Below are positions 2,447-51,593 of a DNA stretch of 64,000 nucleotides, in pieces. The stretch lies in assembly GCA_014193115.1 (NCBI GenBank), contig BJHQ01000012.1, forward strand, positions 86,803-150,802, in the 5' to 3' direction. Each line of letters begins with the position of its first letter. The first letter of the stretch is position 1. Source of the stretch: Planctomycetota bacterium (lineage in GTDB: Bacteria; Planctomycetota; UBA11346). Both the position numbers and the translations under genes were made by a program. A model generated the notes under the pieces. It saw only the letters and a list, made by a program, of their open reading frames with translations, ran no database searches and was not told where the DNA came from.

Positions 2447-2703
2447 TTCGCAACGGATTTCACGCATCAGTACGGTGCTCCATCCGCCAGCGGTGCCGAC
2501 TGACAGTCAAGACACGGCCAGCCAGCGTGTCCGATGCGGACCGATGGTTGCATGGTGATCGATCAGCCCGAATATAAGGGCTGTCAAACCAATCGCTCAT
2601 CCGGATGGCGCGCTGCTCTTCATCGTGACGAGCCTGCTTCCGCCAAGCCCATTGAGCATGCACCTGGCCAGTCCAGGCGCTCAATCCGTCACGGGGATGC
2701 CGC

Positions 2704-3717
2704 ATGGCCGAAGTCAGCGCCGGACACCAGCGAAACGCCCGTGAGGTCATGGCCGCGACCCGGCCGATGGCTGAGGATGATCCGGCCAAAAGCTGGTGGT
2801 ATGTCGCAACCACGTTGACCATCATGACCGGCCTGCTCGGCATTGCTGCGGCCGCCCCGTGGTGGCCGGTTCGTTTGGTTGCCTCGGTGTTCGGGGCCCT
2901 GGTCATGGTCCGGATGTTCATTCTCTACCATGATTTCATGCATGGCTCGATCCTGCGCCGGTCGTTGCTTGCTCGCGTCGTTCTGCTGTCGTATGGCTAT
3001 CTGGTCCTGGTTCCGGCGCGATCCTGGCGTTTCAGCCATAATTTCCACCATGCCCATCCTGGCATCCCCTCCGACGCCAGCGCCGGTTCATTCCCGCTGC
3101 TGACCACGGACATGTGGCGTGAGGCTTCTTGGCTGAAACGTGCCCGCTACCGGTTCAGCCGGCATCCGATCATCATCCTCTGCGCCTACATCACGGTCTT
3201 CGCCTATAGCCTGACGATCGAGGCGTTCCTCGAAAACCCCAAGAAGAACTGGGATTCGCTGCTCGCCATCGCGGTGCATAGCGCCCTGGTCGCCGGGGTC
3301 TGGTGGTTCGGCGGTTTCGAGATGGCCTTTTTCGCTGTGATCCTGCCGATGATCGTGGCCAGCATGATCGGCGCCTATTTATTCTATGTGCAGCACAACT
3401 TCGTCGGCATGCGCATCGTTCCTGGCGAGGAATGGAGCAATTACCAGGCATCCCTCGATTCATGCAGCTTTCTGCGGGTCGGACCGATCATGCGCTGGTT
3501 CACCGGCGATATCGGTTATCACCATGTCCATCATTTGAATGCAGCCATCCCATTCTACCGTTTGGAAGAGACCATGGCCGCCGTGCCCGAGCTTCAGCAT
3601 CCCGTCGAGACCTCCCTGACGCTCAAGGATATTCTCGCCTGCCTGCGGCTGAAGTTGTGGGACACGCGTTCAGGGAAGATGCTGACCTATGCACAGGCCA
3701 GGCAGCTCGCGAGCTGA
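2704..3717 (+). CDS. membrane fatty-acid desaturase family protein
   Basis: Three histidine boxes (HDFMHGS, HNFHHAHP, HHVHHL) and multiple TM segments. Confidence 0.7.
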   Translation: MAEVSAGHQRNAREVMAATRPMAEDDPAKSWWYVATTLTIMTGLLGIAAAAPWWPVRLVASVFGALVMVRMFILYHDFMHGSILRRSLLARVVLLSYGYLVLVPARSWRFSHNFHHAHPGIPSDASAGSFPLLTTDMWREASWLKRARYRFSRHPIIILCAYITVFAYSLTIEAFLENPKKNWDSLLAIAVHSALVAGVWWFGGFEMAFFAVILPMIVASMIGAYLFYVQHNFVGMRIVPGEEWSNYQASLDSCSFLRVGPIMRWFTGDIGYHHVHHLNAAIPFYRLEETMAAVPELQHPVETSLTLKDILACLRLKLWDTRSGKMLTYAQARQLAS

Positions 3718-12918: not shown

Positions 12919-14589
12919 TCAATCGCGAAGCAGCCGACCCGCGCCGCGGCCGGTCAGCGCCGAAGCGGTCCACAGCGCGCAGGCCAGGAACAGCATGCAC
13001 CAGGTGGCGAAGGCGCAGGCCAGGGCCGGACCATTGCCGAGGATCTCGGTCAAGCTGTAGAGCACCCGGGTGATCGGCCAGAAATCGCGTTTCTGGGCGA
13101 TGACCAGCGAATCGCTGACTTCGAGCATCGAAAAGCTGAAGGTCAGCAGCATGCCTGCCGCCAGCGAGGCGGCGATCAGCGGCAGCACGATCCGGGTCAG
13201 GCGCAGCCACGGCCCGGCACCGCAGGCGGCAGCGGCTTCTTCCAGCGCCACCGGCGTCTGCTGGAGGCCCGCCGCCACCGCCCGAACGACATACGGCACC
13301 CGGCGCACGGCGTAGGCGCAGATCAGCAACAGCGTGGGATTCTGACGCGGATCGATGATCGGGCCGAGCACCGGCACACTCGCCAAAAGCACGCCCAGTA
13401 CCAACGTGCCGAAGGCGATGATCAGTCCGGGCACCGCCAAGGGCAGCATCGCCAGCAGGTCGAGACCCTGCCAGCCGAACGGCCGGGCGCGCACTGCGAT
13501 CCAAGCGATGGCGGCGCCGAGACTTCCCGCCAGGACGGTGGCGGCGCCAGCGTACAGCAGGCTGTTGAGGATACCCGGCACGACGTGGGGGTGGGCCAGG
13601 GCCTGGGCGTAATGATCGGTGGTGAACCAGCGCGGCAGCACGGTGCCGTACCATTCGCCGCTGAATGAGAGCAGCGCCACCGCCGCGTGAGGTGCAGCGG
13701 CGAGAATGATCACGACCACGAACGGGCTCGCCGCCGCCACCGCCCACCAGCCGCGCAGCGCCACCGTCGGCCACGGAGCCGAGGCGCCTTTGCCCAAAGC
13801 ATCCGCCCGGCGCCCGAAAATCCCTTGGCCGATACCATAGATCAGCGCCGCCAGGGTCAGCATCACCACGACCTGGGCGAAGGGCAGGCGGTTCTTTTCG
13901 ACCTCGGCCAGACCGTTGAAGATCTGCACCGCCAAGTGTCGATCGAAACCGAGCATCAGCGGCGTGCCGAGTTCGGTGAAGCTCCACACGAACACCACCG
14001 AGGCGCCAGCGAACAACCCCGGCGCAAGCAGCGGAAGCAGCACCCGGCGCCACACCGTCAGCGGGCCGGCGCCGGCGGCGCGGGCGGCCTCGACCAGGGC
14101 CGGATCGAGCCGGGCCAAGGCCGCGGTCGTGGTGAGATACAAAAATGGGTACAGATGCAGCGCCTCGATGGCGACCACCGCGGCCAGGCGGTGGTCGCCC
14201 AGCCAGTCGATCTCCTGCCCTGGCGCCACGATTCCGAGGCCGACCAGCAGCGCATTGAGCGCGCCATGGCGGCCGAGGACCTGGACGAAGCCGATGGCGC
14301 CGACGAACGGCGGCAGGATCAGCGGCGCGAGCAGCAGGGCCTCAGCCACGCCCCGTCCGGCGAAGCGATAACGCGCCGCTATCCACGCCAACGGCAAGGC
14401 GATGGCCAGACAGGCGACGGTGGTGACGGAGGCGATGCCGAGGGCATTGAACACACCGTCGCGCAGCACCGGGTGCTGCGCGATCTCGGCCAGGTTGCTG
14501 AGGGAGACCCCGCCGATGGCGATGGCCACCGGCGCGATCAGAAACAGCGTCAGAAAGCCGGCACAGGCGGCGTAGAGCAGCCAGATCAT
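12919..14589 (-). CDS. Fe(3+)-type ABC transporter permease (two fused transmembrane domains, FbpB-like)
   Basis: A 556-aa protein with about 12 TM segments and two BPD-transporter-type repeats. Its first 16 codons (MIWLLYAACAGFLTLF) lie in the duplicated leader element. Confidence 0.8.
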   Translation of the reverse strand: MIWLLYAACAGFLTLFLIAPVAIAIGGVSLSNLAEIAQHPVLRDGVFNALGIASVTTVACLAIALPLAWIAARYRFAGRGVAEALLLAPLILPPFVGAIGFVQVLGRHGALNALLVGLGIVAPGQEIDWLGDHRLAAVVAIEALHLYPFLYLTTTAALARLDPALVEAARAAGAGPLTVWRRVLLPLLAPGLFAGASVVFVWSFTELGTPLMLGFDRHLAVQIFNGLAEVEKNRLPFAQVVVMLTLAALIYGIGQGIFGRRADALGKGASAPWPTVALRGWWAVAAASPFVVVIILAAAPHAAVALLSFSGEWYGTVLPRWFTTDHYAQALAHPHVVPGILNSLLYAGAATVLAGSLGAAIAWIAVRARPFGWQGLDLLAMLPLAVPGLIIAFGTLVLGVLLASVPVLGPIIDPRQNPTLLLICAYAVRRVPYVVRAVAAGLQQTPVALEEAAAACGAGPWLRLTRIVLPLIAASLAAGMLLTFSFSMLEVSDSLVIAQKRDFWPITRVLYSLTEILGNGPALACAFATWCMLFLACALWTASALTGRGAGRLLRD

Positions 14590-14597
14590 GGGCGCCT

Positions 14598-14662
14598 CCT
14601 GGGAGCGCAGGCTTCAGCCTGCCTGCAACGCGTAACGGCAGGCTGAAGCCTGCGCTCCCAGG
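14598..14662. repeat. REP-like palindromic element, copy A1 (26-bp perfect stem CCTGGGAGCGCAGGCTTCAGCCTGCC, 13-nt loop)
   Basis: A perfect inverted repeat read directly from the sequence. Its 3' arm overlaps the AGGAGG SD of the permease. Confidence 0.9.
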
Positions 14663-14728
14663 ACATCATCGTCACTGTGATCAGGAACAGCGTCAGAAAG
14701 CCGGCACAGGCGGCGTAGAGCAGCCAGA

Positions 14729-15274
14729 TCATGGGCGGGCACCAGTGCGCATCGCGTCGTACAGCGCATCAATGACCGTCTTATCAACCAGTGGATCGAA
14801 CGTGCAGACGACCCCGATCGTCATGTCCCCTTCGACCAGGATCGCACGTTCAAAGGTCGTGTTCTCCCTGATATCGCTCCACCTTTTTGCTTTCCGACTC
14901 GAATCGAAAGGGCCGTAGATTTTCACGACGATCCCCTGGGTTCCGGGGACCATCTCGTTCTCCCAGCGGAAACCAGAATCCGGGGATTTTCCATTTGGAT
15001 ACTGGACCTGACCCATCTTTGCGTTGCGCGAAAGCACGGCGATGTTGTGGATGGTATGGTACATCACAATGCTTTCCTTTCCGAGAATCTGCAGGTATTT
15101 CCCGATGAGCTGCTGGTGCTTCGCCTCGGCTGGACCGTCTTCGCTCCAGAGTGCGGCGATGAATAGCAAAGGAAGCAGCAGATGGCCACGTGGCGCTTGC
15201 ATGACGATGGCCACCGGCGCGATCACGAACAGCGTCAGAAAGCCGGCGCAAGCGGCGTAGAGCAGCCAGATCAT
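14729..15274 (-). CDS. small secreted protein, paralog 1 (181 aa incl. leader; predicted signal peptide)
   Basis: It shares about 65% identity with ORF 15414-15968. A signal-peptide-like MQAPRGHLLLPLLFIAALWS follows the 24-aa duplicated leader. Family unknown. Confidence 0.5.
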   Translation of the reverse strand: MIWLLYAACAGFLTLFVIAPVAIVMQAPRGHLLLPLLFIAALWSEDGPAEAKHQQLIGKYLQILGKESIVMYHTIHNIAVLSRNAKMGQVQYPNGKSPDSGFRWENEMVPGTQGIVVKIYGPFDSSRKAKRWSDIRENTTFERAILVEGDMTIGVVCTFDPLVDKTVIDALYDAMRTGARP

Positions 15275-15282
15275 GGGCGACT

Positions 15283-15347
15283 CCTGGGAGCACAGGCTTC
15301 AGCCTGCCTGCAACGCGTAACGGCAGGCTGAAGCCTGCGCTCCCAGG
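15283..15347. repeat. REP-like palindromic element, copy A2 (one mismatch in stem)
   Basis: Same sequence as A1 with a single A/G difference. Confidence 0.9.
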
Positions 15348-15413
15348 ACATCATCGTCACTGTGATCAGGAACAGCGTCAGAAAGCCGGCGCAGGCGGCG
15401 TAGAGCAGCCAGA

Positions 15414-15968
15414 TCATGGGCGGGCACCAGTGCGCATGACCTCGTAGAGTGCGTCGACGAGGTTCTTGTCCGACTGGGGGCCGAACGAACAAGCAACACC
15501 GATCATCACCTTTCCGTCAACCAGGATCGCCCGTTCAAACGATTGGTCATCCCTGCCATCGCTCCAGGGATGTTGCGCTCCACTTAAATCAAAGGGGCCA
15601 CAGATGTTTACGACGATACCGTGTGCTCCAGGAATCATTTCATTTTCCCAGCGAAAACCGCTGTCCCTGGCCATGCCATTCGGGTACTGCACCCGGCCCA
15701 TTTTGCCATTGAGCGACAAGATAGTGACGTTGTCGATGGTCTGATACAGCACCAAGCCGTCTTTTCCAAGTATTTGCGTGTAATGCCCAATGAGCTGCTG
15801 GTGCTTCGCCTCGGCTGGACCGTCTTCGCTCCAGAGTGCGGCGATGAAAAGCAAAGGAAGCAGCCTGCTCAGCAGATGGCCACATGCCACTTGCATGGCG
15901 ATGGCCACCGGCGCGATCAGAAACAGCGTCAGAAAGCCGGCGCAGGCGGCGTAGAGCAGCCAGATCAT
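15414..15968 (-). CDS. small secreted protein, paralog 2 (184 aa incl. leader)
   Basis: Paralog of 14729-15274. Same leader, signal peptide and a conserved GFRWENEM core. Confidence 0.5.
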   Translation of the reverse strand: MIWLLYAACAGFLTLFLIAPVAIAMQVACGHLLSRLLPLLFIAALWSEDGPAEAKHQQLIGHYTQILGKDGLVLYQTIDNVTILSLNGKMGRVQYPNGMARDSGFRWENEMIPGAHGIVVNICGPFDLSGAQHPWSDGRDDQSFERAILVDGKVMIGVACSFGPQSDKNLVDALYEVMRTGARP

Positions 15969-15976
15969 GGGCGCCT

Positions 15977-16041
15977 CCTGGGAGCGCAGGCTTCAGCCTG
16001 CCTGCAACGCGTAACGGCAGGCTGAAGCCTGCGCTCCCAGG
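15977..16041. repeat. REP-like palindromic element, copy A3
   Basis: Identical to A1. It lies between the SBP stop and the small paralog-2 start. Confidence 0.9.
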
Positions 16042-16044
16042 ACA

Positions 16045-17673
16045 TCATCGTCCCTCCCGGGCCAATTGCGCGGCCAGGCGGTACCGCCGGATGGCCTCCA
16101 CCGTCCAGGTCCTGAGCAGCGCGAGGCGGGTCGCCGGATCGTCCAGTTCCTTGCGATCCATCACGGCTTTCGCGTCGGCGTGGCCGCAGGGCAGCCAGGT
16201 GAACTCGGTCCACGCCGCGGGGACCTGCTCGGGGCCGCCGGCAGTGATGATCGCCTGCCACGCCGCCTGCAATTCAGGCAGCGGATCCAGGCAAAGGGCC
16301 TTGGTGTAGGGGCCGATGAAAGGATAGAGCCCTTTGGTCCATTCCGGGCGGAAGGTGAACGCCGCAGCGGTGGCCATCGGATCCAGGTCGGGGTCGCTCA
16401 TCAGTTGGCGGTCGGCGGCGGTATACGCGTCGAGCCGGATCGGGACCCGGCGCAGGTTGTACACCGTCGGACCTCCTGGCGTCCCGACCCGGTAGTTCCA
16501 CAACCGCTGACCTTCGGGCGACAGGACAAAGGTGATGAATTGCACCGCGAGGTCGCGGTTCTTCGCCCCGCGGAGCAGGGCGATGGGATCCGCCGACAGC
16601 GACGTGCCGCCCGCCGGCACCACGAACACCAGGCGCGCCGTCCCGGGAGTCTTCCCTGGGCCGCCGGCTTCGCGGGTCGTCCAGTCGGCCTCGCTGCGGC
16701 CGTGGAAATCAATGGCAACGCCGGCCGCGGCATCGCCACGGGCCACATCGCGCACCGCCTTCGACGATCCGTCGGCCACCGAGCGGGCGTTGCCGGCCAG
16801 GCGCTTGATCAGCATCCACGCGTCGCGCCAGCCGCTCTCCAGGGCTTTTTCATCAGCGGTCACCTTGGCCGGATCGACCGGCTGGCCGGCCGAAGCCGCG
16901 AGGCGGATGCGCTCCTGGATGATCCGCTCCATGGCCGTCGCCGGCACCGCCGAGCGGGTCGGGTCCGAGAACGTGGTCTGGTGGAACAGACGCGGATCGC
17001 CGAGATCGGCCCAGCCGGTGGGCAGGGGCAGGCCGAGGGCGGCCAGGCGCTCGGGTGAGGCGCAGATCCCGAAGACGCTCAGACAAGCACCGAAATACCG
17101 GCCCTTGGCGTCGTACATGGTCTCGCCGCTGAGGGTCTGGGGAATGATTGCTGGGGCGAACCAGTCGGCGTGATCGCGGAGCAGCCCGGCATCGACCAGA
17201 TAGCCTTTTCCGGCCAGCTGACGGTGCGGGAACTCGCCGCCGCCGAAGAACACATCGTGGTCGCAGCTGGTCTGTGAATCGAGGAACGCCGCCCGGCAGG
17301 CCTTGCGCCGCGCGGCTTGTTCCGCAGGGAGATCCTTGGGCAATTTGTCGGAGGTCATCGCTTCGGCGACATCCTTGCCGAGATCAGCGAAGTCGCGGCC
17401 GGCGCCAGCGGCGAACGCCGCGGCGTAGCGGGCATCGAGCATCCGGGTGATGTCGTTGGTCCCGCCCGGGCTGCGCCAGTCCACCGCCACGTCCTCGCCG
17501 CTGGTCCGCTTCATGAACGAGGCAAAGGCGACGCCAAATTCGTAGCGGATCTGCTCTCCATGGGGACTGACCACGATCACCGAGCGCTGCGGCGCCGGTT
17601 TCGCCGCCGGGCGCAGCAGCAGCGGCGCCGCGATCAACGCCAGCAGCAGAGCGAGGGGCAGCCAGCGGATCAT
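16045..17673 (-). CDS. ABC transporter periplasmic substrate-binding protein (Fe(3+)/solute family 1-like)
   Basis: Signal peptide (MIRWLPLALLLALIAAPLLL), 542 aa. It sits between the ABC ATPase and the permease. Family assignment comes from context and weak similarity. Confidence 0.5.
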   Translation of the reverse strand: MIRWLPLALLLALIAAPLLLRPAAKPAPQRSVIVVSPHGEQIRYEFGVAFASFMKRTSGEDVAVDWRSPGGTNDITRMLDARYAAAFAAGAGRDFADLGKDVAEAMTSDKLPKDLPAEQAARRKACRAAFLDSQTSCDHDVFFGGGEFPHRQLAGKGYLVDAGLLRDHADWFAPAIIPQTLSGETMYDAKGRYFGACLSVFGICASPERLAALGLPLPTGWADLGDPRLFHQTTFSDPTRSAVPATAMERIIQERIRLAASAGQPVDPAKVTADEKALESGWRDAWMLIKRLAGNARSVADGSSKAVRDVARGDAAAGVAIDFHGRSEADWTTREAGGPGKTPGTARLVFVVPAGGTSLSADPIALLRGAKNRDLAVQFITFVLSPEGQRLWNYRVGTPGGPTVYNLRRVPIRLDAYTAADRQLMSDPDLDPMATAAAFTFRPEWTKGLYPFIGPYTKALCLDPLPELQAAWQAIITAGGPEQVPAAWTEFTWLPCGHADAKAVMDRKELDDPATRLALLRTWTVEAIRRYRLAAQLAREGR

Positions 17674-17797
17674 GGCTGGGAACGCCGAGCGCCAGCCCGG
17701 CCCGCTGGGCTGGAGACGGAAATCCAGGGCTTACGCGAAAACAAGGTGCGCGCTTTCCGCGGCGGCGATGCCCACCTCTCCAATGTCTGTGCACACT

Positions 17798-17990
17798 CCA
17801 GCCGAGCTGGTGCTCGGCGCTCCCAGGCAAGCTCCAGCTCAAACTCCAGCTCAAACTCCAGCCGAGCTGGTGCTCGGCGCTCCCAGGCAAGCTCCAGCTC
17901 AAACTCCAGCCGAGCTGGTGCTCGGCGCTCCCAGGCAAGCTCCAGCTCAAACTCCAGCCGAGCTGGTGCTCGGCGCTTCCAGGCAAGCAT
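17798..17990. repeat. tandem repeat (about 3.7 copies of a 48-60-bp unit) with palindromic core GCCGAGCTGGTGCTCGGC
   Basis: The unit ccagccgagctggtgctcggcgctcccaggcaagctccagctcaaact repeats directly between the ABC ATPase stop and the SBP start. Confidence 0.85.
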
Positions 17991-19048
17991 CATGGCAGCA
18001 CCACGACATGTTCAGGAGAAACAGCTAAACGCAGGGCGTCACCTGGACGACGTTCCGGTGCGGCCGGTTCACTGACCACCAGGCGGACCTCGCCGCAACG
18101 CACCGTCCACAGCGCGACCGGGCCGAGGAACGTGCCCGATTCGATGACCCCGCTGATCGTTCCGGGGTCGCCGATCCGTAGCCGTTCCGGACGCAGACAA
18201 AGCGTGGCTGGGCCGGTGGCGGCGGAGGACGCTGTTGCCAGTCGGCCGAGGGCGGATTCGACCACGCCTTTTTCCACCACTCGGCCAGGGATGAGGTTCG
18301 CATCGCCGATGAACGAGGCCACCACCCGGCTGGCTGGGCGGTCGTACAGTTCGCGGGGCGTCCCGACCTGGGCGATGCGGCCGCCATCCATCAGCGCGAT
18401 CCGGTCGGCGGTGGACAGCGCCTCGGCCTGATCGTGGGTGACCGAAATCGCGGTCACGCCGGCGGCTTTGCAGGCGGTACGGATCTCGGCCCGCATCTCG
18501 ACCCGCAGCCGGGCATCGAGATTCGACAGCGGTTCATCGAGCAGCAGCACCCGGGGCCTGGTCACCAGGGCCCGGGCCAAGGCCACCCGCTGCTGCTGGC
18601 CGCCGGACAGCTCGCCGACCCGGCGGCCGGAGAAACCGCCTAGGCCGACCTGATCCAGGGCTTCGCCGATCCGCTTCGCCCGATCTTTGCTTGGAATAGC
18701 GAGGACTTCCAGGCCGAAGCCGACATTGCCGGCCACGTCCAGATGCGGCCACAAGGCATAATGCTGGAAGACCATGCCGATCCCGCGCCGTTCCGGCGGC
18801 AGCTTGGTCACGTCCTGGTCGGCGAAACGAACGCTGCCCGCATCCGGGGCCAGGAAGCCGGCAACGATGCGCAGCAACGTGGTCTTGCCGCAGCCGCTGC
18901 CGCCGAGCAGGAAGAAGATCTCTCCGGCGGCGATGGCCAGTTCTATCCCGGCCAGGACCCGGTTCTTACCGTCATAGGATTTCTCCACGGCCTGGATCGA
19001 CACGGCGGTCGCCTGCTGGCGGGCGGATGGCGCAGCGCGGTCGCTCAT
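17990..19048 (-). CDS. ABC transporter ATP-binding protein (FbpC/PotA-like with C-terminal TOBE-like domain)
   Basis: Walker A (GGSGCGKTT), signature (LSGGQQQRVALARAL), Walker B (LLLDEP). The ORF extends to 19408, but the Gly/Ala-rich extension is probably untranslated. Start chosen at MSDRAAPS. Confidence 0.85.
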   Translation of the reverse strand: MSDRAAPSARQQATAVSIQAVEKSYDGKNRVLAGIELAIAAGEIFFLLGGSGCGKTTLLRIVAGFLAPDAGSVRFADQDVTKLPPERRGIGMVFQHYALWPHLDVAGNVGFGLEVLAIPSKDRAKRIGEALDQVGLGGFSGRRVGELSGGQQQRVALARALVTRPRVLLLDEPLSNLDARLRVEMRAEIRTACKAAGVTAISVTHDQAEALSTADRIALMDGGRIAQVGTPRELYDRPASRVVASFIGDANLIPGRVVEKGVVESALGRLATASSAATGPATLCLRPERLRIGDPGTISGVIESGTFLGPVALWTVRCGEVRLVVSEPAAPERRPGDALRLAVSPEHVVVLP

Positions 19049-19193
19049 GGCGGCAGCCTCGCGCCGGCCGGATCCAGGCAAGTGCTCCAACCACCGAGCC
19101 GGATCGCTGCCCAGCGTTGCCTCGCTGCCATGCCAACCTAGCGTGCGTCCCCCCTCCCGGCCCGCAGCCCCGCCTGGAACCACGCCGACCACC

Positions 19194-20963
19194 ATGACCG
19201 ATGCTCCTCGCCCGCCGGGTCCTCCGGCTCTTCCTTCGGCCAACCCGGCAGCCCCTGCGAAGCAGGCGCCGACCGCGACCAAACCTGAGCCGGTGGCCGA
19301 CGACGCAGCCGCTCCTGCGGTCGGACTGACCTTCGGGCAGCATGTCTTCATCTGGTCGATGATCCTGCTGGTCGGCATCATTTTCGGCATCGGTTCAACC
19401 GTCGGCATCCTGCAACAGGGGCCGAGCTACATCGACGATCAGAAGGACATCACCGCCGCCGAGGTCACCGCCCGCCGGGTGGTCACCGACCGGCTTGAGA
19501 TCGCCCTGAACCCCAATCCCGAACGAGCCGGCCGGCTCCTGTTCCGGCGCGGCGAGCCCCAATGGGCCGCCCACATCCGGCTGGCGCGGATCGCGGCCAA
19601 GGATGGCCTGGTGCCCACCGGCGCCACCCTCGACCGCCTGGTCGCCGAGTTCCTGGCCGAAAAATCCGAGTCCGGCCGTACCTATGGGGCCGTGCTGAAG
19701 GACCAGGTCGGCAGCAAGTACGAAGTCGATCTGCTCGATCTGCGGATGTTCCTGGCCGAACGCCAGGGCGTCGATGCCCTGATGCAGCGGACTTCGTCGG
19801 TCCCGGCCGTGCCGACCGTCGCCGCCGAGCTGATGGCCGAGGAAAAAATCACCGTGGATCAGGTCGAATTGACCGCGGCCCAATTCCTCAAGCCGGTGGC
19901 GGAGGACGACCCGGAGATCGAAACCGCCTATCAGCGGCTGCGCCCGACCCGGTTCACCGCCCCCGCCGCCGCCGACCTGAAGGTGGCCTTTGCCGACATC
20001 AATGTCCTGCGTTCCAAGCTGGTGAATGGTCTGACCGAAGCCGACCTGAAGGCCTGGTATGACAGCCATCCCGGAGCGATCACCCGCCCCAAGGCCGATA
20101 AGCCGACCGAGACCGAGCCCGTCCCGTTCGCCGAGGCCAAGGACCAGGTCCGCGACAAGCTGTCCCGGGAACGGGCCGTCCCCGAGGCGTTGAAGCTGGT
20201 GTCGGCGTTCAACGAAATCGTCTCTGCCGACGGCCTGACCGAGAAGGATTCCGCAGCATTTTCAGCGGCCGCCGAGAAAGCCGGCTTGAAGGTCCAGACC
20301 CATACCATCGCCGAACAGACCGATGGCAAAGCCTACGCCTTGGGCGACCTAGGCTCGGTCCATGACCTGGTCGGCTTCTTCAATCGCAGCCAGGCGCCGG
20401 GGCTGATCACCAACCTGATCCACACCGAAGGCGCGGAGAGCAACGCGGTGATCATCCGCCTGGAAGCCCGCCGCGAATCCGGATTCAAGCTCCTGGCCGA
20501 GGTCAAACCCCAGGTCCGCGAATGGCTGGCCGGCCGGCGGGCGTGGAAGGACCTGCTCGCCGCTGCCGAGGTCGCCCGGGTGGCTGCGGCCAAGACCGGT
20601 CTGGCCGCTTGGGCCGCGGCTCCCGAGCAGGCCGTCTGGAAAACCACGGTGAAATCCGAACCCTCCCGGCCGACCCGCAAAATTCAGGCGCCACCGGCGG
20701 AGTCCGACGGACCACCTGGCGAGAGCCAGCCCGTCGCCGCCCTGGCCCTGCCCGGCCGGCCGGTGGCCCTCGACCGGATGGAACCCGCCAAGGGCAGCGA
20801 TCTGCCCAGGGTACGCCTGGTCCAGGTGGCCAAGGTCGAACCGGGTCCGGCCCAGACCGCGGAGAATTCCAAATACATGGTCGAGTACTATCGCTACTTG
20901 CTCCGCGGGTACCTGAACGACCTCGCCCAGGAACGCCTGCGCGACCGCATGGGCGGACGCTGA
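19194..20963 (+). CDS. membrane-anchored periplasmic protein, PpiD-like chaperone with degenerate parvulin domain (tentative)
   Basis: An N-terminal Pro/Ala-rich tail, one TM (HVFIWSMILLVGIIFGIGSTVGIL), a long periplasmic region and a weak parvulin-like segment (ALGDLGSV...). Confidence 0.4.
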   Translation: MTDAPRPPGPPALPSANPAAPAKQAPTATKPEPVADDAAAPAVGLTFGQHVFIWSMILLVGIIFGIGSTVGILQQGPSYIDDQKDITAAEVTARRVVTDRLEIALNPNPERAGRLLFRRGEPQWAAHIRLARIAAKDGLVPTGATLDRLVAEFLAEKSESGRTYGAVLKDQVGSKYEVDLLDLRMFLAERQGVDALMQRTSSVPAVPTVAAELMAEEKITVDQVELTAAQFLKPVAEDDPEIETAYQRLRPTRFTAPAAADLKVAFADINVLRSKLVNGLTEADLKAWYDSHPGAITRPKADKPTETEPVPFAEAKDQVRDKLSRERAVPEALKLVSAFNEIVSADGLTEKDSAAFSAAAEKAGLKVQTHTIAEQTDGKAYALGDLGSVHDLVGFFNRSQAPGLITNLIHTEGAESNAVIIRLEARRESGFKLLAEVKPQVREWLAGRRAWKDLLAAAEVARVAAAKTGLAAWAAAPEQAVWKTTVKSEPSRPTRKIQAPPAESDGPPGESQPVAALALPGRPVALDRMEPAKGSDLPRVRLVQVAKVEPGPAQTAENSKYMVEYYRYLLRGYLNDLAQERLRDRMGGR

Positions 20964-23627: not shown

Positions 23628-23936
23628 ATGAGCGAATTGCCTGAACCACTTGAGCACCGCGGCCGCGGGCGCCCAGCCAAGGCCAATCCCCGCAACCAGA
23701 TGATCAAAGTCGCCTTCAGCGATGAGGAATACCGTTGGGTCGTCGAACGCGCAGGGAGCCACGACCTGAGTTTGTCCGATTATTGCCGACGCAAAGTCCT
23801 CGGCCGCACCGTGCCCTTCAGCGACGGGGGAGCTGCGGTGGCCAGTGCAGATTTCACCGAGGCCCTGTCCCGCCTGGAACCACGTGAACCGGACCAGGGA
23901 GCGCCGGGCAGCGAACGGTTCACCAAACCGAGCTGA
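23628..23936 (+). CDS. MobC-like ribbon-helix-helix protein, paralog 1
   Basis: GRGRPAKANPRNQMIKVAFSDEEYRWVVERAGSHDLSLSDYCRRKVLGR matches the MobC-family RHH consensus (basic arm, 'vRLt.eE', 'glS.SeyiRr..lg'). Confidence 0.5.
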   Translation: MSELPEPLEHRGRGRPAKANPRNQMIKVAFSDEEYRWVVERAGSHDLSLSDYCRRKVLGRTVPFSDGGAAVASADFTEALSRLEPREPDQGAPGSERFTKPS

Positions 23937-24104: not shown

Positions 24105-24416
24105 ATGCATGAGCAGCCCGAGGTGGAGCCGCGCGGACGTGGTGGCCGACCGGCCAAAGCCCACCCCCGCAACCTGATGATCAAAGTTGCCTTCAGTGAT
24201 GAAGAACATCGCTGGGTCGTCGAACGCGCCGCGGCCCACGACCTGAGCCTGTCGGACTATTGCCGGCGCAAGGTGCTTGGCCGGACGGTACCCTTCGGCG
24301 AAACCTCGGGCAAAGCGAGCGGCGATTTCAGCGAGACCTTGGCCCGCATGGAAGGTTCGTCATCGGCCCGCGACGCAAGCGAACCCGCCGACAAACGGCC
24401 TGCCAATCCCGGCTGA
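24105..24416 (+). CDS. MobC-like ribbon-helix-helix protein, paralog 2
   Basis: About 75% identical to paralog 1 over the RHH core, 480 bp downstream. Confidence 0.5.
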   Translation: MHEQPEVEPRGRGGRPAKAHPRNLMIKVAFSDEEHRWVVERAAAHDLSLSDYCRRKVLGRTVPFGETSGKASGDFSETLARMEGSSSARDASEPADKRPANPG

Positions 24417-36613: not shown

Positions 36614-36759
36614 GCGGAGGATCCCGGGGGCGGAAGGAGGCCCGCCGTTCACCATCATCCGGCTGCACCCGGTGGAGCAACCGCCAGGAACAGTCCGGCT
36701 GAACATCAGTATTCCGTAAAAATACCGGGAAGATCACGGTTCGAGGGGCCGTGTCTGCG

Positions 36760-36902
36760 CCGAGCGCCAGCTCGGCAGAAGGTCGATGAAGCTGCAAAAG
36801 ACCTGGGATCAGGACACGGCATGCACCGCCCTGGGAGCGCCGAGCGCCAGCTCGGCAGATGGTCGATGAAGCTGCAAAAGACCTGGGATCAGGACACGGC
36901 AT
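36760..36902. repeat. tandem duplication (2 x 72 bp) spanning the 3' end of hpt
   Basis: Two near-identical copies containing the palindrome GCCGAGCGCCAGCTCGGC. Each copy carries the last 12 codons of hpt. Confidence 0.85.
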
Positions 36903-37410
36903 GCACCGCCGGCCAATGGCGGAAATGCCCATCGAGATCGAGCCCGTACCCGACGACGAACACATCGGGAATGGTGAAACCGATGTGGTCCGCCGTGGCC
37001 AACCCGCCAGGCACCCGCCGCGCCGGTTTGTCGAGCAGCACCGCGGTGCGCACCGAACGAGCGCCAGCGGCCTGCACCGCCGCCACCGCCGACGCCAAGG
37101 TCCGCCCAGTATCGAGGATATCATCGACGATCACGACCTCGGCGCCGCCGAGGTCGCCCAAGCCATCGATAGCCACGATTCCGCTCGACGAGGTGCCGGC
37201 ATAACTCCGCGCCCGAACAGAGCGCAGTTCCAGCTCGGGCAGGGTCATGCCCCGGGCGAGATCCGCCGCGAACAGCCAGGCGCCATCGAGCAATGCCAAC
37301 AAAACCGGCCGCTGCGCCGGGCTCAGAACCTGATCGAGCTCCCCTGCCAACCGCTGCACCGCGGCGGCAATCGCATGGGCCGAAATCAGGGGGTCAGGGT
37401 TGGGGCGCAT
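36889..37410 (-). CDS. hpt: hypoxanthine-guanine phosphoribosyltransferase
   Basis: PRPP-binding motif VVIVDDILDTGRT and full-length HGPRT similarity. Confidence 0.85.
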   Translation of the reverse strand: MRPNPDPLISAHAIAAAVQRLAGELDQVLSPAQRPVLLALLDGAWLFAADLARGMTLPELELRSVRARSYAGTSSSGIVAIDGLGDLGGAEVVIVDDILDTGRTLASAVAAVQAAGARSVRTAVLLDKPARRVPGGLATADHIGFTIPDVFVVGYGLDLDGHFRHWPAVHAVS

Positions 37411-38282: not shown

Positions 38283-38440
38283 ACTTATGCTGGCCAAAAC
38301 CAACCCAACCAAGCCCAACCCAGCCGAGCTGGCGCTCGGCGCTGCCAGGGCTGGCGCTTGGCGCTGCCGGGGCTGGCGCTTGGCGCTGCCGGGGCTGGCG
38401 CTTGGCGCTCCTGGGCTTGGCACTCGGTCATGCCGTTTCT
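38283..38440. repeat. tandem repeat array (about 4 x 22 bp GGGGCTGGCGCTTGGCGCTGCC) seeded by GCCGAGCTGGCGCTCGGCGCTGCC
   Basis: Direct repeats between the nucleotidyltransferase start and the lgt stop. The motif is related to the 17798-17990 array. Confidence 0.85.
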
Positions 38441-39793
38441 CGGGACGACGGGGTGAGCTGATACAAGTCAGGACGCGGTCCGCGTTTCCAGGCCCACCAC
38501 AGCACGACCACGCCAGCCAGGAACAGCGGGATGGTCAGGGCCTGGCCTTTGCTCATGAAACCGAGGATGAACGCCCCGCCATCGACGCCGCCGGGTTGGC
38601 CCTTGTCCGGCTCGCGGAAGAACTCGCCGATGAAGCGGCCCAGGCCGTAGGTCAGCAGCGCGGCCGCTGTGGTCAGACCGGGACTCCGGTGCAGGCGGTG
38701 GGCGGTCACGGCCACCACCAGCACCAGCACCCCCTCCAGTCCGACGGCATAAAGCTGGCTGGGATGGCGTGGGACGTTTTCTGAGGCAACGAGCGGAGCG
38801 TCCGGGAAGACCACCGCCCACGACACGTCGGTCGGCCGGCCCCACAGTTCGCCATTGATGAAGTTGGCGATGCGACCGAGAGCGACGCCGATGCCGACGA
38901 CCGCCGCCGAGGCATCGGCCATCACCGGCATCGACACGCGGTTGCGCCGGCACCACCAGAACCAGGCGATGACCATGCCGACCAGACCGCCATGGCTGGC
39001 CATGCCGCCGTCGTGGAAATAGAACACGCCCCACCACGGTAGGCTCGATGAAAACGTGATGAACAGCTCGGGATCGTAGAACAGGCAATAGCCCAGCCGG
39101 CCACCGGCGATGATCCCCAAGGCCATGAACGTGGCGAAATCGATGACCTGTTCGGGCACCAGCGGCAGCCGGCCGATCCGGCACCACCGGCGTAGCCACA
39201 GCGCACCGAGGATGACTCCGGTGACATAGGCTAGGCCGTACCAGCGGACGCCAGGGAAGCGCACGGCGGTACCTGGGATCATGAACGGCGGGACGGCGAA
39301 CGGATTGAGGTCATGGTGCCAATAAGTGGCGAAACGATCTTCCGACGTGATGTCCGGTGGTTCCAGGAGATCGAGCCGCCGCCGGATGTCCCACGGACCT
39401 TTCGCATCGAGGATGAGCTTGCCCGCATCGAACAGCAGGCATCGGGGAAGCGGCGGCCGCTCCAGATCGCCGACCTTGGCGGAGGCCACCACGCTGACCT
39501 GATCGCTGCCACCGTTGGCGGTCCAGGCGTCGCGGATCTCCTGCACACTGCCGTCGCTGGCGTGGGCGGCCACCACCGCCGCCCGAGGATGATGCCTGAC
39601 GATCGCCGACAGCTCCGGGATCGCATAGAGGCATTCGGCGCAGCCGCGGCCCCAGAAAGCGATCACCACAAATCGGTCCGAGCGAACCTGCTGCGGACCG
39701 GAGAGCACCGGACCGAAGCTGGCATCGGCCACGGTCAGCTCGCCAGCGCTGGCGATGGCGCAGAGCAGCACCAGGAGGATTCCTGGGAGCACA
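38428..39793 (-). CDS. lgt: fusion protein: TlpA-like thioredoxin domain (CxxC) - prolipoprotein diacylglyceryl transferase
   Basis: Lgt signature (HHDLNPFAV...GVRWYGLAYVTG...GRIANFINGELWGRPT...) preceded in frame, without an intervening start codon, by FWGRGCAECLYAIPEL and a signal/anchor segment. A probable GTG start lies at 39793, and the ORF extends to 40014 through a REP element. Confidence 0.6.
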
Positions 39794-39802
39794 GGACGGG
39801 AT

Positions 39803-39866
39803 CCTGGGAGCGCAGGCTTCAGCCTGCCCGCAGCGCTGTTGAGCAGGCTGAAGCCTGCGCTCCCAG
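39803..39866. repeat. REP-like palindromic element, copy A4 (variant loop, preceded by a partial copy at 39781-39795)
   Basis: Same 26-bp arms as A1-A3. Confidence 0.85.
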
Positions 39867-40010
39867 CCTGCCTGCCGCGAAAGAACTCCCCCGCCGCGCG
39901 GGGCTCCGGCTCGGCCGGAGGGGCCGGCTGTGCCGTCCCGGGTTCTTGTTTGCCCGGGGGTAGCCCCCCGGACGCGCCACCCGGCGCTCCCCCGAGCAGC
40001 CTGCGGCTGC

Positions 40011-41417
40011 TCACGGCTGATCGAAGAACGTCAGGTAAGGCTTCCGCTTCGCTTCAAGACGCTGCAAATACAGGGCGAGTTCAAGCGCGTGGTAGTCGCC
40101 CCACAGCGCTGATTCACCGCAAGGGATTTTACTGCCCTTGGGGATGTGATCCCAACCATTGGGACGATGGTAGACAGTGTGCAGGAGCAGGCCCTGATGC
40201 TTCGGCGACGTGCTCAGATAGGGCTCGGCGAACAAGGATTTCGCCACGGTCAGCCCGGCTTGGGTGTAGCGGCGGCCGAGACCGGCGCCTCCCCGTTGCG
40301 CCCCCAGCCAACGGCCGAGGCGGAGCAGGCCCTGGGCGGCGATGGCGGCAGCCGAGCTGTCCACCGGCTCGGCGTCATTGAACGGGTCGGCTGGGCGCTG
40401 CTGCCAGTCGCCGAGCTTGACCAGCAGCGGCGCGCCGGTGTCCCAATAGGGAATGCCGTCGAGGGCGGTGCCGCGGTCGATCCAGAAATCGCACACGGCT
40501 TCGGCGGCGCGGCGATAGGCGGCGAGCACATCCTTCTTGGCGGGCAGGCCGGCAGGTGAAAAGTCGCTTGCTGGCAACGTGTCGAGAAACTCCAGCTGTT
40601 CGGCGTATCCGAGGATCGCCCAGGCCAGACCGCGGGTCCAGGTGGAAAAGGGCGCGAAGCCCTGCTGGCTGCTCGGGCAGCGGAAGGCGCCATCGGTGCG
40701 GTTGAAGATCGATTCGTGGGCAGTGCGACCGCGCACATCGTAGGTGTCGCGGCCTTCGCCATAGTAGATGTTCCAGCGGGCGCTGGTCAGGCCGTGGATC
40801 ACCGACCGGCCGAGCAGGCTGATGACCGCGTCGCCCTCGCCTTGGAAGCGATGACCGAGCTGATGGGCCACGCCGAGGATGCGCACGGTGCGGATGGTGT
40901 CGATGAACAGCGAATGCGGGCCGTTGAACGAATGGACGAACCCGCCGGCGATGCCGTCCTTTTCCTTGCGCTCGGTCCAGCGGCTGGCCTGGGCGCAGGC
41001 GCTGGCGGCGATGGCCAGGGCGTAGAAACGCTGCTGCCAATCATCGTCTGCAGCTCCGGCCTCGCGGCCGAGCCGGCGCAGGTTGCCATAGGTCGACAGA
41101 TTATTGAAGCCGTGATCGTGGACGCCGATGTGGGTGACGTGGGGCGCCATCGCAGCCAGGGTCTGGCTGCGGCCGAGTTCGACCAGGTCGGCATCGCCCA
41201 GGCCGTCGCCAGCCAAAATCGCGCAACCGTACTGGAATCCCTGGGTCCATTCGGTCCAACCGCGGGTGGCATAACGCCCGGCGATGGTGAACACCGGCGT
41301 GCCTTTGCGCGGATCCCAGGTGGCGTGGATCGCCCGGACCTTGTCGGCGGCCAAGGAAAAGACCTGGGCGCAAGCGGCGGAGAGAGAGGCGGGAGTGAGA
41401 GAGTCGTCGAGGCGCAT
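40011..41417 (-). CDS. six-hairpin glycosidase-like protein (GH88/GH105-like, tentative)
   Basis: Size and WGDYHALE-type C-terminal motif. Weak. Confidence 0.3.
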   Translation of the reverse strand: MRLDDSLTPASLSAACAQVFSLAADKVRAIHATWDPRKGTPVFTIAGRYATRGWTEWTQGFQYGCAILAGDGLGDADLVELGRSQTLAAMAPHVTHIGVHDHGFNNLSTYGNLRRLGREAGAADDDWQQRFYALAIAASACAQASRWTERKEKDGIAGGFVHSFNGPHSLFIDTIRTVRILGVAHQLGHRFQGEGDAVISLLGRSVIHGLTSARWNIYYGEGRDTYDVRGRTAHESIFNRTDGAFRCPSSQQGFAPFSTWTRGLAWAILGYAEQLEFLDTLPASDFSPAGLPAKKDVLAAYRRAAEAVCDFWIDRGTALDGIPYWDTGAPLLVKLGDWQQRPADPFNDAEPVDSSAAAIAAQGLLRLGRWLGAQRGGAGLGRRYTQAGLTVAKSLFAEPYLSTSPKHQGLLLHTVYHRPNGWDHIPKGSKIPCGESALWGDYHALELALYLQRLEAKRKPYLTFFDQP

Positions 41418-47534: not shown

Positions 47535-47567
47535 ACCGATTGGACGGAATCAGCACCGGTGCGATCC

Positions 47568-47592
47568 CTGGGAGCGCAGGCTTCAGCCTGCT
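47568..47592. repeat. REP-like element, half copy A5 (left arm only)
   Basis: CCTGGGAGCGCAGGCTTCAGCCTGC without the matching right arm. Confidence 0.7.
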
Positions 47593-49928: not shown

Positions 49929-51593
49929 ATGCCCGCCAAGAAGATCATCTTCAACGAAGACGTCCGCGATAAGATCAAGTCCGGCGTTGAAAAGCTCGCC
50001 CGCGCGGTCAAGGCGACCCTCGGCCCGTCCGGCCGCAACGTCGTGATCGGCAAGTCCTGGGGCTCGCCCCAGGTGACCAAGGACGGCGTCACCGTTGCCG
50101 AACAAATCGAGCTGCGCGACCCCTTCGAGAACATCGGCGCCAGGCTGGTTCGCGAAGTCGCATCGAAAACCGGTAGCCAGGCTGGTGACGGCACCACCAC
50201 CGCCACCGTGCTCGCTGAAGCGATCTTCCTGAAGGGCCTGAAGGCCGTGAACAGCGGCGTCAACCCGCTCGAACTGAAGAAAGGCATCGACGCCGCCGTG
50301 GCCGCGGTCATCGCCAGCCTCGACAAGCAGGCGGTCAAGGTGAAGGGTGATTTCAAGGCAATCGCCAACGTCGGTTCGATCAGTGCCAACAACGAAGCCG
50401 AAATCGGCCGGCAGATCGCCGACGCCGTGCAGAAGGTCGGCGAAGACGGCGTCATCACCGTCGAAGAAGGCAAGGGCGTCAAGGACGAGGTCGACGTCGT
50501 CGAAGGCATGCAGTTCGATCGCGGCTATGTCAGCCCGAACTTCATCACCGACCACGACCACCTGACCGCCGATCTGGAAAACCCCTACATCCTGGTCCAC
50601 GAAAAGAAGATCTCGAACGTTCAGGAGATCGTCCCGCTGCTCGAAAAGGTCGCTAAGGCCAATCGCAGCCTGCTGATCATCGCTGAAGAAGTCGAAGGCG
50701 AGGCCCTGGCCACCCTGGTGGTCAACAACCTGCGCAAGGTCCTCAAGAGCGTGGCGGTCAAAGCACCCGGCTACGGCGACCGCCGCAAGGCCCTGCTCGA
50801 AGACATCGCCAAGCTCACCGGCGGCAAGGCGATCTTCGAAGACCTCGGCATCGAGCTGAAGAACATCGAGCTCAGCGACCTCGGCCAGGCCAAGTCGGTG
50901 AAGGTCGAGAAGGAAAACACCACGATCATCGAAGGCGCCGGAAAGCGCGCCGACGTCCAAGCCCGGATCAAGCAGATCCGCCGCGAGATCGAGGACACCA
51001 AGAGCGACTACGACCGCGAAAAGCTGCAAGAGCGCCTCGCCAAGTTGGCCGGCGGCGTCGCGGTCATCCGCGTCGGTGCAGCCACCGAGGCCGAGATGAA
51101 AGAGCGCAAGGACCGCGTTGATGATGCCCTGCACGCCACCCGGGCGGCCATCGAGGAAGGCATCGTCGCCGGCGGCGGCACGGCCTATCTGCGGGCATTG
51201 GGCGCCATCGACGCCCTCGGCCTGTCGGGCGATGCCAAGACCGGCGCTGAAATCATCCGCGCAGCCATCCAGCTCCCGACCATCACCATCGCCGACAATG
51301 CCGGCAAGGACGGCCTGGTGGTGGTGAATGCCGTGCTCAAAGAGAAGGGCAACGTCGGCTACAACGCCAAAACGGATGTCTACGAGGACCTCGTCAAGTC
51401 CGGCGTCATCGACCCGGTCAAGGTCGCCAAGAGCGCGCTGGTCAATGCGGTCAGCGTCGCCAGCCTGTTGCTGTCCACCGAGGCTCTCGTCGCCGAGATC
51501 AAAGAGCCCAAGAAGGACGCCAAGAAGGGCGGCCAGGGCGGCGGCGAAGATGACGAAATGGGTGGCATGGGTGGCATGGGCGGGGATTTCTGA
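49929..51593 (+). CDS. groL: chaperonin GroEL, copy 1 (with C-terminal GGM repeat tail)
   Basis: Full-length 60-kDa chaperonin ending in ...[11 protein letters not shown]. Confidence 0.95.

Follow-up and report, generated by a model that had tools for sequence, protein, structure and literature searches.

A Planctomycetota ABC transporter operon probably invaded by REPIN-type repeats and enlarged by an acquired secreted-protein gene

In a Planctomycetota bacterium from a lake (contig BJHQ01000012.1) we have analysed a stretch of 64,000 nucleotides (positions 86,803 to 150,802 of the forward strand, hereafter the window), which carries on its minus strand an ATP-binding cassette (ABC) transporter operon with two small genes, P2 and P1, located between the genes of the substrate-binding protein (SBP) and of the permease. 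The gene order is ATPase, SBP, P2, P1, permease and aspS (Table 1). The initial annotation pictured the operon as rebuilt around a repeated hairpin and a leader donating start signals, with two inserted paralogous secreted-protein genes chained by ATGA stop/start overlaps, and as a description this was right. With regard to its meaning, the locus looks like an unusual genome rearrangement, and not like a purpose-built translation relay or a mobile cassette.

The transporter genes and their repeated junction

The leader in front of P2, P1 and the permease gene is recognizable as the 5' end of the permease gene itself. Homologous permeases (553-569 aa) have matching N-termini with the pattern M-R/K-W-x-x-Y...FL-x-VFL-x-x-PV...A, therefore the permease of this operon can be taken to start at MIWLLY, a start which had been open to doubt and was upheld by the comparison. 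Its N-terminus, MIWLLY...PVAIA, is the family-conserved first transmembrane segment, and the leader is a copy of this segment's coding sequence. Five copies of the leader are present, as already recognized, although the shared part is not 55 bp with 16 codons: 54 nt or 18 codons (MIWLLYAACAGFLTLFLI) are common to all five, and 74 nt to the three copies which start P2 (15968), P1 (15274) and the permease gene (14589). The leader was absent from the rest of the window and from 48 loci of other genomes carrying the repeat described below, and metagenome scans with a degenerate back-translation of the leader, or with the hairpin and its specific spacer, found nothing.

A hairpin (A3, A2 and A1 in the order of transcription) stands before each of the three longer copies. 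The three hairpins had been described with perfect 26-bp stems; the arms proved to be 27 nt long, and two of the three stems are perfect, the middle one having a single C>U substitution that keeps a G-U pair in the RNA. The structures are extremely stable, with z about -7 and a minimum free energy (MFE) of -74 to -83 kcal/mol over segments of 111-139 nt, and the chance expectation for such copies is zero. The 27-bp stem of A3 (MFE -74 kcal/mol, z -7.7) starts 2 nt past the stop codon of the SBP gene, which was read directly as TGA at 16045-16047. A Shine-Dalgarno (SD) sequence, AGGAGG, lies 5 nt ahead of each ATG with its AGGA part within the 3' arm, as had been noted, except that the middle copy reads AGGAGT. 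An intrinsic terminator with a U-tract was ruled out by a sequence scan, Rfam holds no family for the hairpin (only sub-threshold matches to miRNA-like hairpins appeared), and a scan of the locus for a sigma-70-like promoter found none.

Two open reading frames (ORFs) of 48 codons, which had been reported to run through hairpins with an ATGA overlap at both ends, were confirmed by their coordinates. In each of them permease nt 1-54 are followed by a filler ACAGT, a copy of the SBP gene's 3' end (GACGATGA), the hairpin and the SD (Table 1). Across the hairpin of these modules the leader frame is the sole open frame, and it ends exactly on the next ATG; the four ATGA overlaps lie at 15414-15417, 15271-15274, 14729-14732 and 14586-14589. 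No ORF passes through the hairpin of the first module, from SBP to P2. The whole repeated unit of about 690 nt consists of GACGATGA, the hairpin, the SD, permease nt 1-74, the foreign ORF, CGCCC with permease nt 1-54, and ACAGT, after which comes either another unit or the permease gene proper.

Three homologous operons have the order ATPase-SBP-permease; neighbours in them share 4 nt or almost touch, and no gene lies between SBP and permease. In the operon of the window both junctions are opened by repeats. The spacer between the ATPase and SBP genes contains about four tandem REP-like units of 48-60 nt with the same head CCTGGGAGCGC as the hairpin arms but a different mini-palindrome, GCCGAGC-ACCA-GCTCGGC, and GCCATGAT flanks this insert on both sides. 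At the SBP-permease junction ATGAT is found ahead of the hairpin and again at the start codon. The old ATGA overlap appears to have been duplicated at both junctions, by which neither the stop of the upstream gene nor the start of the downstream gene was lost; the duplicated overlap might be a target-site duplication or a product of selection. The insert between ATPase and SBP also ends in an inverted head-like sequence, which gives it the look of a miniature inverted-repeat transposable element.

As for the substrate, the architecture (SBP and ATPase genes together with a fused two-domain permease of roughly 550 aa) is that of the Fe(III) ABC importers of the FbpABC/AfuABC type, and the permease homologues bear the label 'iron(III) transport system permease' in the JGI (Joint Genome Institute) collection, which is a source label only. 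All matches to the substrate-specific NCBIfam models are far below their cutoffs, the best being the molybdate, sulfate and aminoethylphosphonate models, and the Fe(3+)-type assignment made in the initial annotation is a putative one. The longest ORF of the ATPase has 472 aa versus 336-346 aa in relatives, and translation probably starts some 120 codons after its first ATG.

Table 1. Features of the operon and of the repeat family (positions of the window, or of locus L039 where indicated)
Feature	Position	Strand	Remarks
ABC transporter ATPase gene	17990-19408	-	Pfam ABC_tran + TOBE_2
ATPase-SBP spacer	17674-17989	-	repeat array 17795-17988; relatives' genes overlap 4 nt
SBP gene	16045-17673	-	Pfam SBP_bac_6/8/11/1
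Hairpin A3, REPIN-like inverted doublet	15976-16042	-	27-nt arms, 13-nt spacer; repeat and RNA-fold analysis
Permease 5' copy (first 74 nt), annotated start of P2	15895-15968	-	AGGAGG SD at 15974-15979
Small gene P2 (184 aa as annotated)	15414-15968	-	internal ATG 15894-15896; divergent core ~15439-15788
Leader ORF 2 (48 codons)	15271-15417	-	ATGA overlap at each end; permease 5' 54 nt 15364-15417, ACAGT 15359-15363, SBP 3'-end copy 15351-15358, A2, SD
Hairpin A2	15282-15348	-	27-nt arms, 13-nt loop; inside leader ORF 2
Small gene P1 (181 aa as annotated)	14729-15274	-	permease 5' copy 15201-15274; internal ATG 15200-15202; core ~14754-15103
Leader ORF 1 (48 codons)	14586-14732	-	ATGA overlap at each end; permease 5' copy 14679-14732, ACAGT 14674-14678, SBP 3'-end copy 14666-14673, A1, SD
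Hairpin A1	14597-14663	-	27-nt arms, 13-nt loop; inside leader ORF 1
Fused two-domain ABC permease gene	12919-14589	-	Pfam BPD_transp_1 in two stretches; 556 aa
Inverted doublet of the hairpin-arm unit	39802-39868		different spacer; intergenic, upstream of lgt
Single unit of the hairpin-arm family	47566-47592	+	between two co-directional ORFs
REP-associated tyrosine transposase (RAYT) gene	L039 2625-3245	-	206 aa; NF047646 92 bits (cutoff 80); PF01797 Y1_Tnp

The hairpins as members of a dispersed repeat family

Each hairpin arm is a copy of a dispersed unit, CCT-GGGAGC-GCAGGCTTCAGCCTGC (full form CCT-GGGAGC-GCAGGCT-TC-AGCCTGC), conserved across 78 copies; besides the conserved head CCTGGGAGC it has a 7-bp mini-palindrome of its own. 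The units occur singly or as inverted doublets with spacers that are all different, about 6-30 nt long at the loci of other genomes and at the doublet upstream of lgt. The three hairpins of the operon have one identical spacer, unlike every other member of the family, each of which has its own, and because of this they are to be regarded as local copies of one another and not as independent insertions. A short unit (about 20-40 nt) whose palindromic core is imperfect and whose flank is conserved, and inverted doublets with varying spacers, are the features of repetitive extragenic palindromic (REP) elements and of their hairpin-forming doublets (REPINs), in agreement with the definition in PMC3337134.

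The window contains five elements of the family at three loci, and both sites away from the operon are intergenic. The exact 22-mer GGGAGCGCAGGCTTCAGCCTGC was detected in 48 loci (L006-L053) of species-representative genomes from several phyla: about 20 of the loci belong to a Planctomycetota metagenome-assembled genome (MAG) from Lake Mendota, many to two Fimbriimonas MAGs and to 'bacterium Bin_7_3', and single copies are present in Acidobacteriota, Verrucomicrobiota and others. The Lake Mendota loci share with the window only the repeats and no synteny, and in viral contigs neither the hairpin arm nor the small protein was present. The arrangement of the repeats is taxon-specific: Planctomycetota have inverted doublets, and in Fimbriimonas (Armatimonadota) there is a second mini-hairpin (ATGGGTCC-GCAGRATTCAYCCTGC) in direct orientation.

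In Fimbriimonas sp. SMAG_U3636 (L039) a RAYT gene is flanked on both sides by inverted units of the hairpin-arm family (2588-3335). It was the single match to an E. coli RAYT probe and was confirmed independently with NCBIfam and Pfam (Table 1). The same locus carries a second, partial RAYT copy at 1391-1522 (66% identity over 44 aa).

It had been suggested that hairpin and leader together form a mobile 'gene-capturing' cassette. The leader was found beside none of the 67 further arm copies in the 48 loci and at neither of the two other sites of the window, and because it never accompanies hairpin copies elsewhere, a mobile hairpin-leader module was rejected. A start codon followed by a long ORF was found within 15 nt of the 3' arm in 18% of the 67 copies, compared with 18.7% at random positions. 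The idea that the repeat family generally acts as an SD donor was dropped after this comparison.

Considering the known systems, the family resembles REPIN/RAYT elements in its unit of about 25 nt with an imperfect palindromic core, dispersed and apparently mostly intergenic, in its singletons and inverted doublets with differing spacers (Bertels & Rainey 2011; PMC3337134, PMC3116915), and in the presence, in one genome, of a RAYT flanked by inverted units. It differs from them in that its exact 22-mer is common to several phyla, that the three copies with an identical spacer would derive from a local segmental duplication, and that no RAYT was seen in the 64-kb window. REPIN-RAYT systems are described as lineage-specific and mostly vertically inherited (10.1101/2022.05.22.493013), a picture with which an identical core sequence in the REP-RAYT family of several phyla is at odds.

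Two further observations in the window concern such repeats. The longest ORF of lgt (38428-40014, 528 aa) has its Pfam domain only from residue 255, and the N-terminal extension crosses the REP doublet; the true start is probably well downstream of the first ATG. At 36757-36910 there is a near-perfect 80-bp tandem duplication (98%) with the head CCTGGGAGCGC and a palindrome GCGCCGAGCGCCAGCTCGGC, probably a further member of the same repeat superfamily.

The small genes and their protein family

The proteins of P1 and P2 are secreted-type paralogues as had been predicted, with 69% identity instead of the approximately 65% first given. Within a divergent core of about 350 nt the ratio of nonsynonymous to synonymous divergence (dN/dS) is 0.15, the changes are distributed over the three codon positions as 30/21/65, and the other two frames hold stops. 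Because of this low ratio and the third-position excess, P1 and P2 are genuine coding genes under purifying selection. Their cores have 53% GC, the window average being 66% and the host being quoted at 66-70%, and their GC content at third codon positions (GC3) is 0.64-0.69 versus 0.85 for the host. By these measures they are compositionally foreign, and horizontal acquisition is the best explanation. No second source of the insert was found within the window.

No significant match to either protein was obtained in Pfam, NCBIfam, PHROGs, PADLOC or PDB, and a word-indexed protein search with the body of the small protein returned the two paralogues only. The earlier statement that they belong to no known family therefore holds for curated libraries, but not for an exhaustive profile search of 1.84 billion representatives, by which about 17 distant relatives of 155-200 aa were found. 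The motifs LSK..VSGQ, NAKLGRV.P.G, G.R.E.E.VP..G.V..FYGP and QK.W are common across the whole domain (proteins P0123-P0144; loci L054-L058). P0137 and some others are two-domain proteins, and P0128 (4372 aa) has 14 partial matches.

The relatives open with ordinary signal peptides, and the internal segment MQ...LLPLLFIAALW...AEA|K of P1 and P2 aligns to these. Because of this alignment the native start is most likely the internal ATG (15896 in P2, 15202 in P1), the 24 permease residues being an add-on. Cleavage likely occurs after AEA, and the mature secreted protein would probably be the same from either ATG, because the native signal peptide follows in both cases. A lipoprotein reading was dropped, there being no lipobox in the sequence. 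With an alignment of 15 sequences AlphaFold gave a confident model (pLDDT, the predicted local distance difference test, 86), compared with an unusable one from 2 sequences (pLDDT 39).

It would be attractive to see P1 and P2 as dedicated periplasmic accessory factors of the transporter, for example substrate chaperones or receptors recruited for better uptake, and an accessory pair for metal uptake had indeed been suggested. Purifying selection and the encoding of secreted-type proteins between SBP and permease genes are in line with such a role. On longer contigs, however, the relatives are single-copy genes in DNA of 40-50% GC, among small hypothetical genes, with ruvAB or DUF3300 in the vicinity; no relative examined has a transporter as its neighbour or belongs to a transporter operon, and all three homologous operons examined lack a gene at this position. 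The family is annotated in no library, and the fold matches of the model were too weak for a functional assignment. We therefore consider an accessory role very unlikely. The family, sparse and unannotated, is nevertheless worth pursuing, since its secreted proteins of about 160 aa have a fold that was predicted with confidence.

Origin and expression of the enlarged operon

Our preferred reading, to which we give a probability of roughly 60%, is that a transporter operon was invaded by REPINs and that duplications of a junction built a horizontally acquired secreted-protein gene into it and multiplied this gene. The starting point would be an ATPase-SBP-permease importer operon, in which palindromic repeats of the REP/REPIN type parted two ancestral ATGA overlaps. 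Between SBP and permease the acquired ORF would have been joined in frame behind permease codon 24, and the junction segment (SBP stop, REPIN, SD and permease 5' end) duplicated, by which an intact permease gene was regenerated downstream.

The unit contains three novel types of junction, namely permease nt 74/insert, insert/CGCCC-ATG and permease nt 54/ACAGT/SBP 3' end, therefore at least two illegitimate or template-switch events have to be assumed. The 5' end of the insert joins the later host coordinate and its 3' end the earlier one, as would be expected of an insertion with a duplication of about 79 bp, by template switch or in a sister-chromatid event; this single step would both fuse the ORF to the permease start signals and restore an intact permease gene downstream. 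The junction nt 54/ACAGT/SBP would be a tandem-duplication joint, and unequal recombination between the repeats of about 150-350 bp could then have set the copy number at two.

The identity of the two units is 97-100% in the hairpin and leader, in the initial ~100 nt of the ORF and in the last ~80 nt, and 60-75% in the core. The synonymous divergence (dS) of the P1/P2 cores is 1.9, compared with about 0.1 in the flanks, and because of this mosaic the duplication was neither simple nor recent, contrary to the fallback explanation of the initial annotation. Gene conversion among three to five repeat copies might have kept the flanks near-identical while the cores diverged; alternatively, recombination between the shared flanks could have brought in a second, diverged allele.

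A mosaic in which the cores are old and the flanks young is also the expected look of two strain alleles, and it should be considered whether there is in reality one small gene, whose P1-type and P2-type alleles were threaded serially by a short-read assembler. The source MAG was assembled by metaSPAdes from 2x300-bp reads (10.1101/655167), and the repeats are about 150-350 nt long at 97-100% identity. Gaps of 100 N fall exactly inside hairpins in two independent scaffolds (L001 1853-1952, L002 2207-2305), and L002 contains only P2 ahead of its gap, P1 not being found in that sample. Such an artefact would nevertheless be quite unlikely: the independent single-sample assembly L001 is contiguous from P2 through hairpin, P1 and hairpin to the permease gene with identical leader/hairpin spacing, the middle module has single-nucleotide differences of its own beside the ACAGT junction, and a dS of 1.9 is very high for alleles of one population with identical flanking genes. 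Even if it were true, the hairpins, the leader copies and one leader ORF would stay. The reading of L002 as a single-copy variant was set aside as uninformative, since its gap falls inside the hairpin. Short-read assemblers break at this palindrome, and genomes rich in the repeat may be fragmented by it generally.

One could also imagine that the hairpin-bounded unit is a composite mobile cassette, moved by a RAYT-type transposase or by hairpin-directed recombination and serving as a gene-capture device. Identical hairpins bound the unit, the repeat family has a verified RAYT in another genome, two diverged cores lie in near-identical flanks as in a cassette array, and the insert is trimmed to the ORF. 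The boundaries do not agree with this picture: near-identity between the flanks reaches about 100 nt into the ORF at the 5' side and about 20 nt at the 3' side and does not stop at ends set by the hairpin, and all flanking pieces are local operon sequence. No second site with the unit or the leader exists in the window, the 48 REP loci, or the JGI and viral collections, nor is there a RAYT nearby. We regard this as very unlikely. A broader version, where the unit between two identical REPINs, equipped with the ribosome-binding site, start codon and first transmembrane segment of the host gene, is a gene-capture scaffold taking up foreign ORFs precisely from start to stop and multiplying in the operon, with obligatory serial translation through the leader ORFs, seems decidedly unlikely as well. 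Integron cassettes offer a parallel in promoterless ORFs separated by a repeated palindrome and in diverged ORFs between near-identical repeats. The repeats of the operon are nevertheless perfect 27-bp stems of a REP family, and not imperfect attC-type palindromes with unpaired bases; they include SBP and permease coding sequence, only two paralogous ORFs are present, and the near-identical flanks enter them. No integrase was seen at the locus, flanked by transporter genes and aspS, although no search was aimed at integrases.

It should be emphasized that several points weigh against the proposed sequence of invasion, capture and duplication. The order and mechanism of the rearrangements are deduced from the junction sequences only, and no intermediate state was found in any database searched. 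The nearest relative, with a permease 94% identical (P0004/L003), is on a contig that ends inside the permease gene. The two-copy state rests on short-read metaSPAdes assemblies, other scaffolds breaking in the hairpins, and a RAYT was found neither in the window nor at the examined Planctomycetota loci. Finally, the insert is trimmed almost exactly to the ORF, from its ATG to a few codons before its end. Random illegitimate recombination would be expected to give a less tidy result, and this precision could be due to selection, to microhomology at CCATG-type junctions or to a novel capture mechanism.

Concerning expression, each small gene would borrow the SD and start of the permease or use its own internal ATG. 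The hairpins would act like usual intercistronic REPs, as a barrier to 3'-exonucleases, as an obstacle to ribosomes beside the SBP stop and by partial occlusion of the SD. On reaching the SBP stop a ribosome would melt the stem at its base, where the SD is paired, and the downstream genes would probably be translated by termination-reinitiation at the ATGA overlaps. In the second and third modules, ribosomes reinitiating at the ATGA after a small gene would cross the hairpin through the 48-codon ORF and stop on the next ATG. The leader ORFs would be by-products of the duplicated 5' gene fragment and may incidentally carry ribosomes through the hairpins.

Overlapping stop and start codons and ribosome-binding sites masked by structure are well known from translational coupling in bacterial operons. 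The operon resembles these in its four ATGA overlaps and in its SDs, a part of each being hidden in a stem which ribosomes arriving from upstream would unfold; it differs in that the upstream ORFs are duplicated permease fragments with no independent conservation. A stronger proposal would be a selected relay, where every ribosome-binding site is closed by its hairpin and the purpose of the leader ORFs is to melt the hairpins, resulting in strict serial translation of the three genes by ribosomes that had started upstream, and in fixed ratios of the products. The four overlaps, the AGGA of every SD within a very stable stem, the leader frame as the only one open through the hairpin and its end exactly on the next ATG would fit such a relay, as would the lone C>U substitution with RNA pairing preserved, and transporter function would require that the permease is still made. 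The first module, however, has no read-through ORF and must still permit downstream expression, and before the insertion the permease gene itself must have been expressed behind such a hairpin without a leader ORF. The two leader ORFs are copies of one event, hence not independent evidence, and when a 5' fragment is duplicated in GC-rich DNA, the prior for a frame that stays open and ends in ATGA would be about 1 in 3 to 1 in 6. Since the leader is also plain permease sequence and no conservation beyond this population was found in the metagenome scans, we consider a selected relay unlikely.

Intercistronic REPs of ABC importer operons were reportedly described by Higgins et al. in 1982 and Stern et al. 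in 1988 at malE-malF and hisJ-hisQ. The resemblance to these is close as regards the position, a stable palindrome directly between SBP and permease genes. With its 2-nt distance from the SBP stop the hairpin is also inside the range of 15 nt from a stop codon, within which REPs are stated to stall ribosomes in PMC12306157 (citing Liang et al. 2015 and earlier work), where REP structures are also said to block exonucleases. The operon of the window differs in that the repeat has split a former ATGA overlap and holds part of the next SD, and that it was duplicated together with coding sequence, lying inside an ORF in two of its three copies.

As it stands, the locus combines known kinds of element and event, REP elements in operons and segmental duplication with gene conversion, and offers no new regulatory mechanism. 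If the proposed reconstruction is right, selfish palindromic repeats can part overlapping genes without killing either of them, and a junction duplication can plug an acquired ORF into an operon, where the ORF is provided with a ribosome-binding site, a start codon and even a membrane segment. The same arrangement would yield small read-through ORFs open to later co-option for coupling.

Elsewhere in the window two pairs of diverged direct repeats, 50003-51424 versus 52175-53602 (71% over 1.4 kb) and 23667-23879 versus 24144-24353 (76% over 215 bp), suggest neighbouring paralogous genes.

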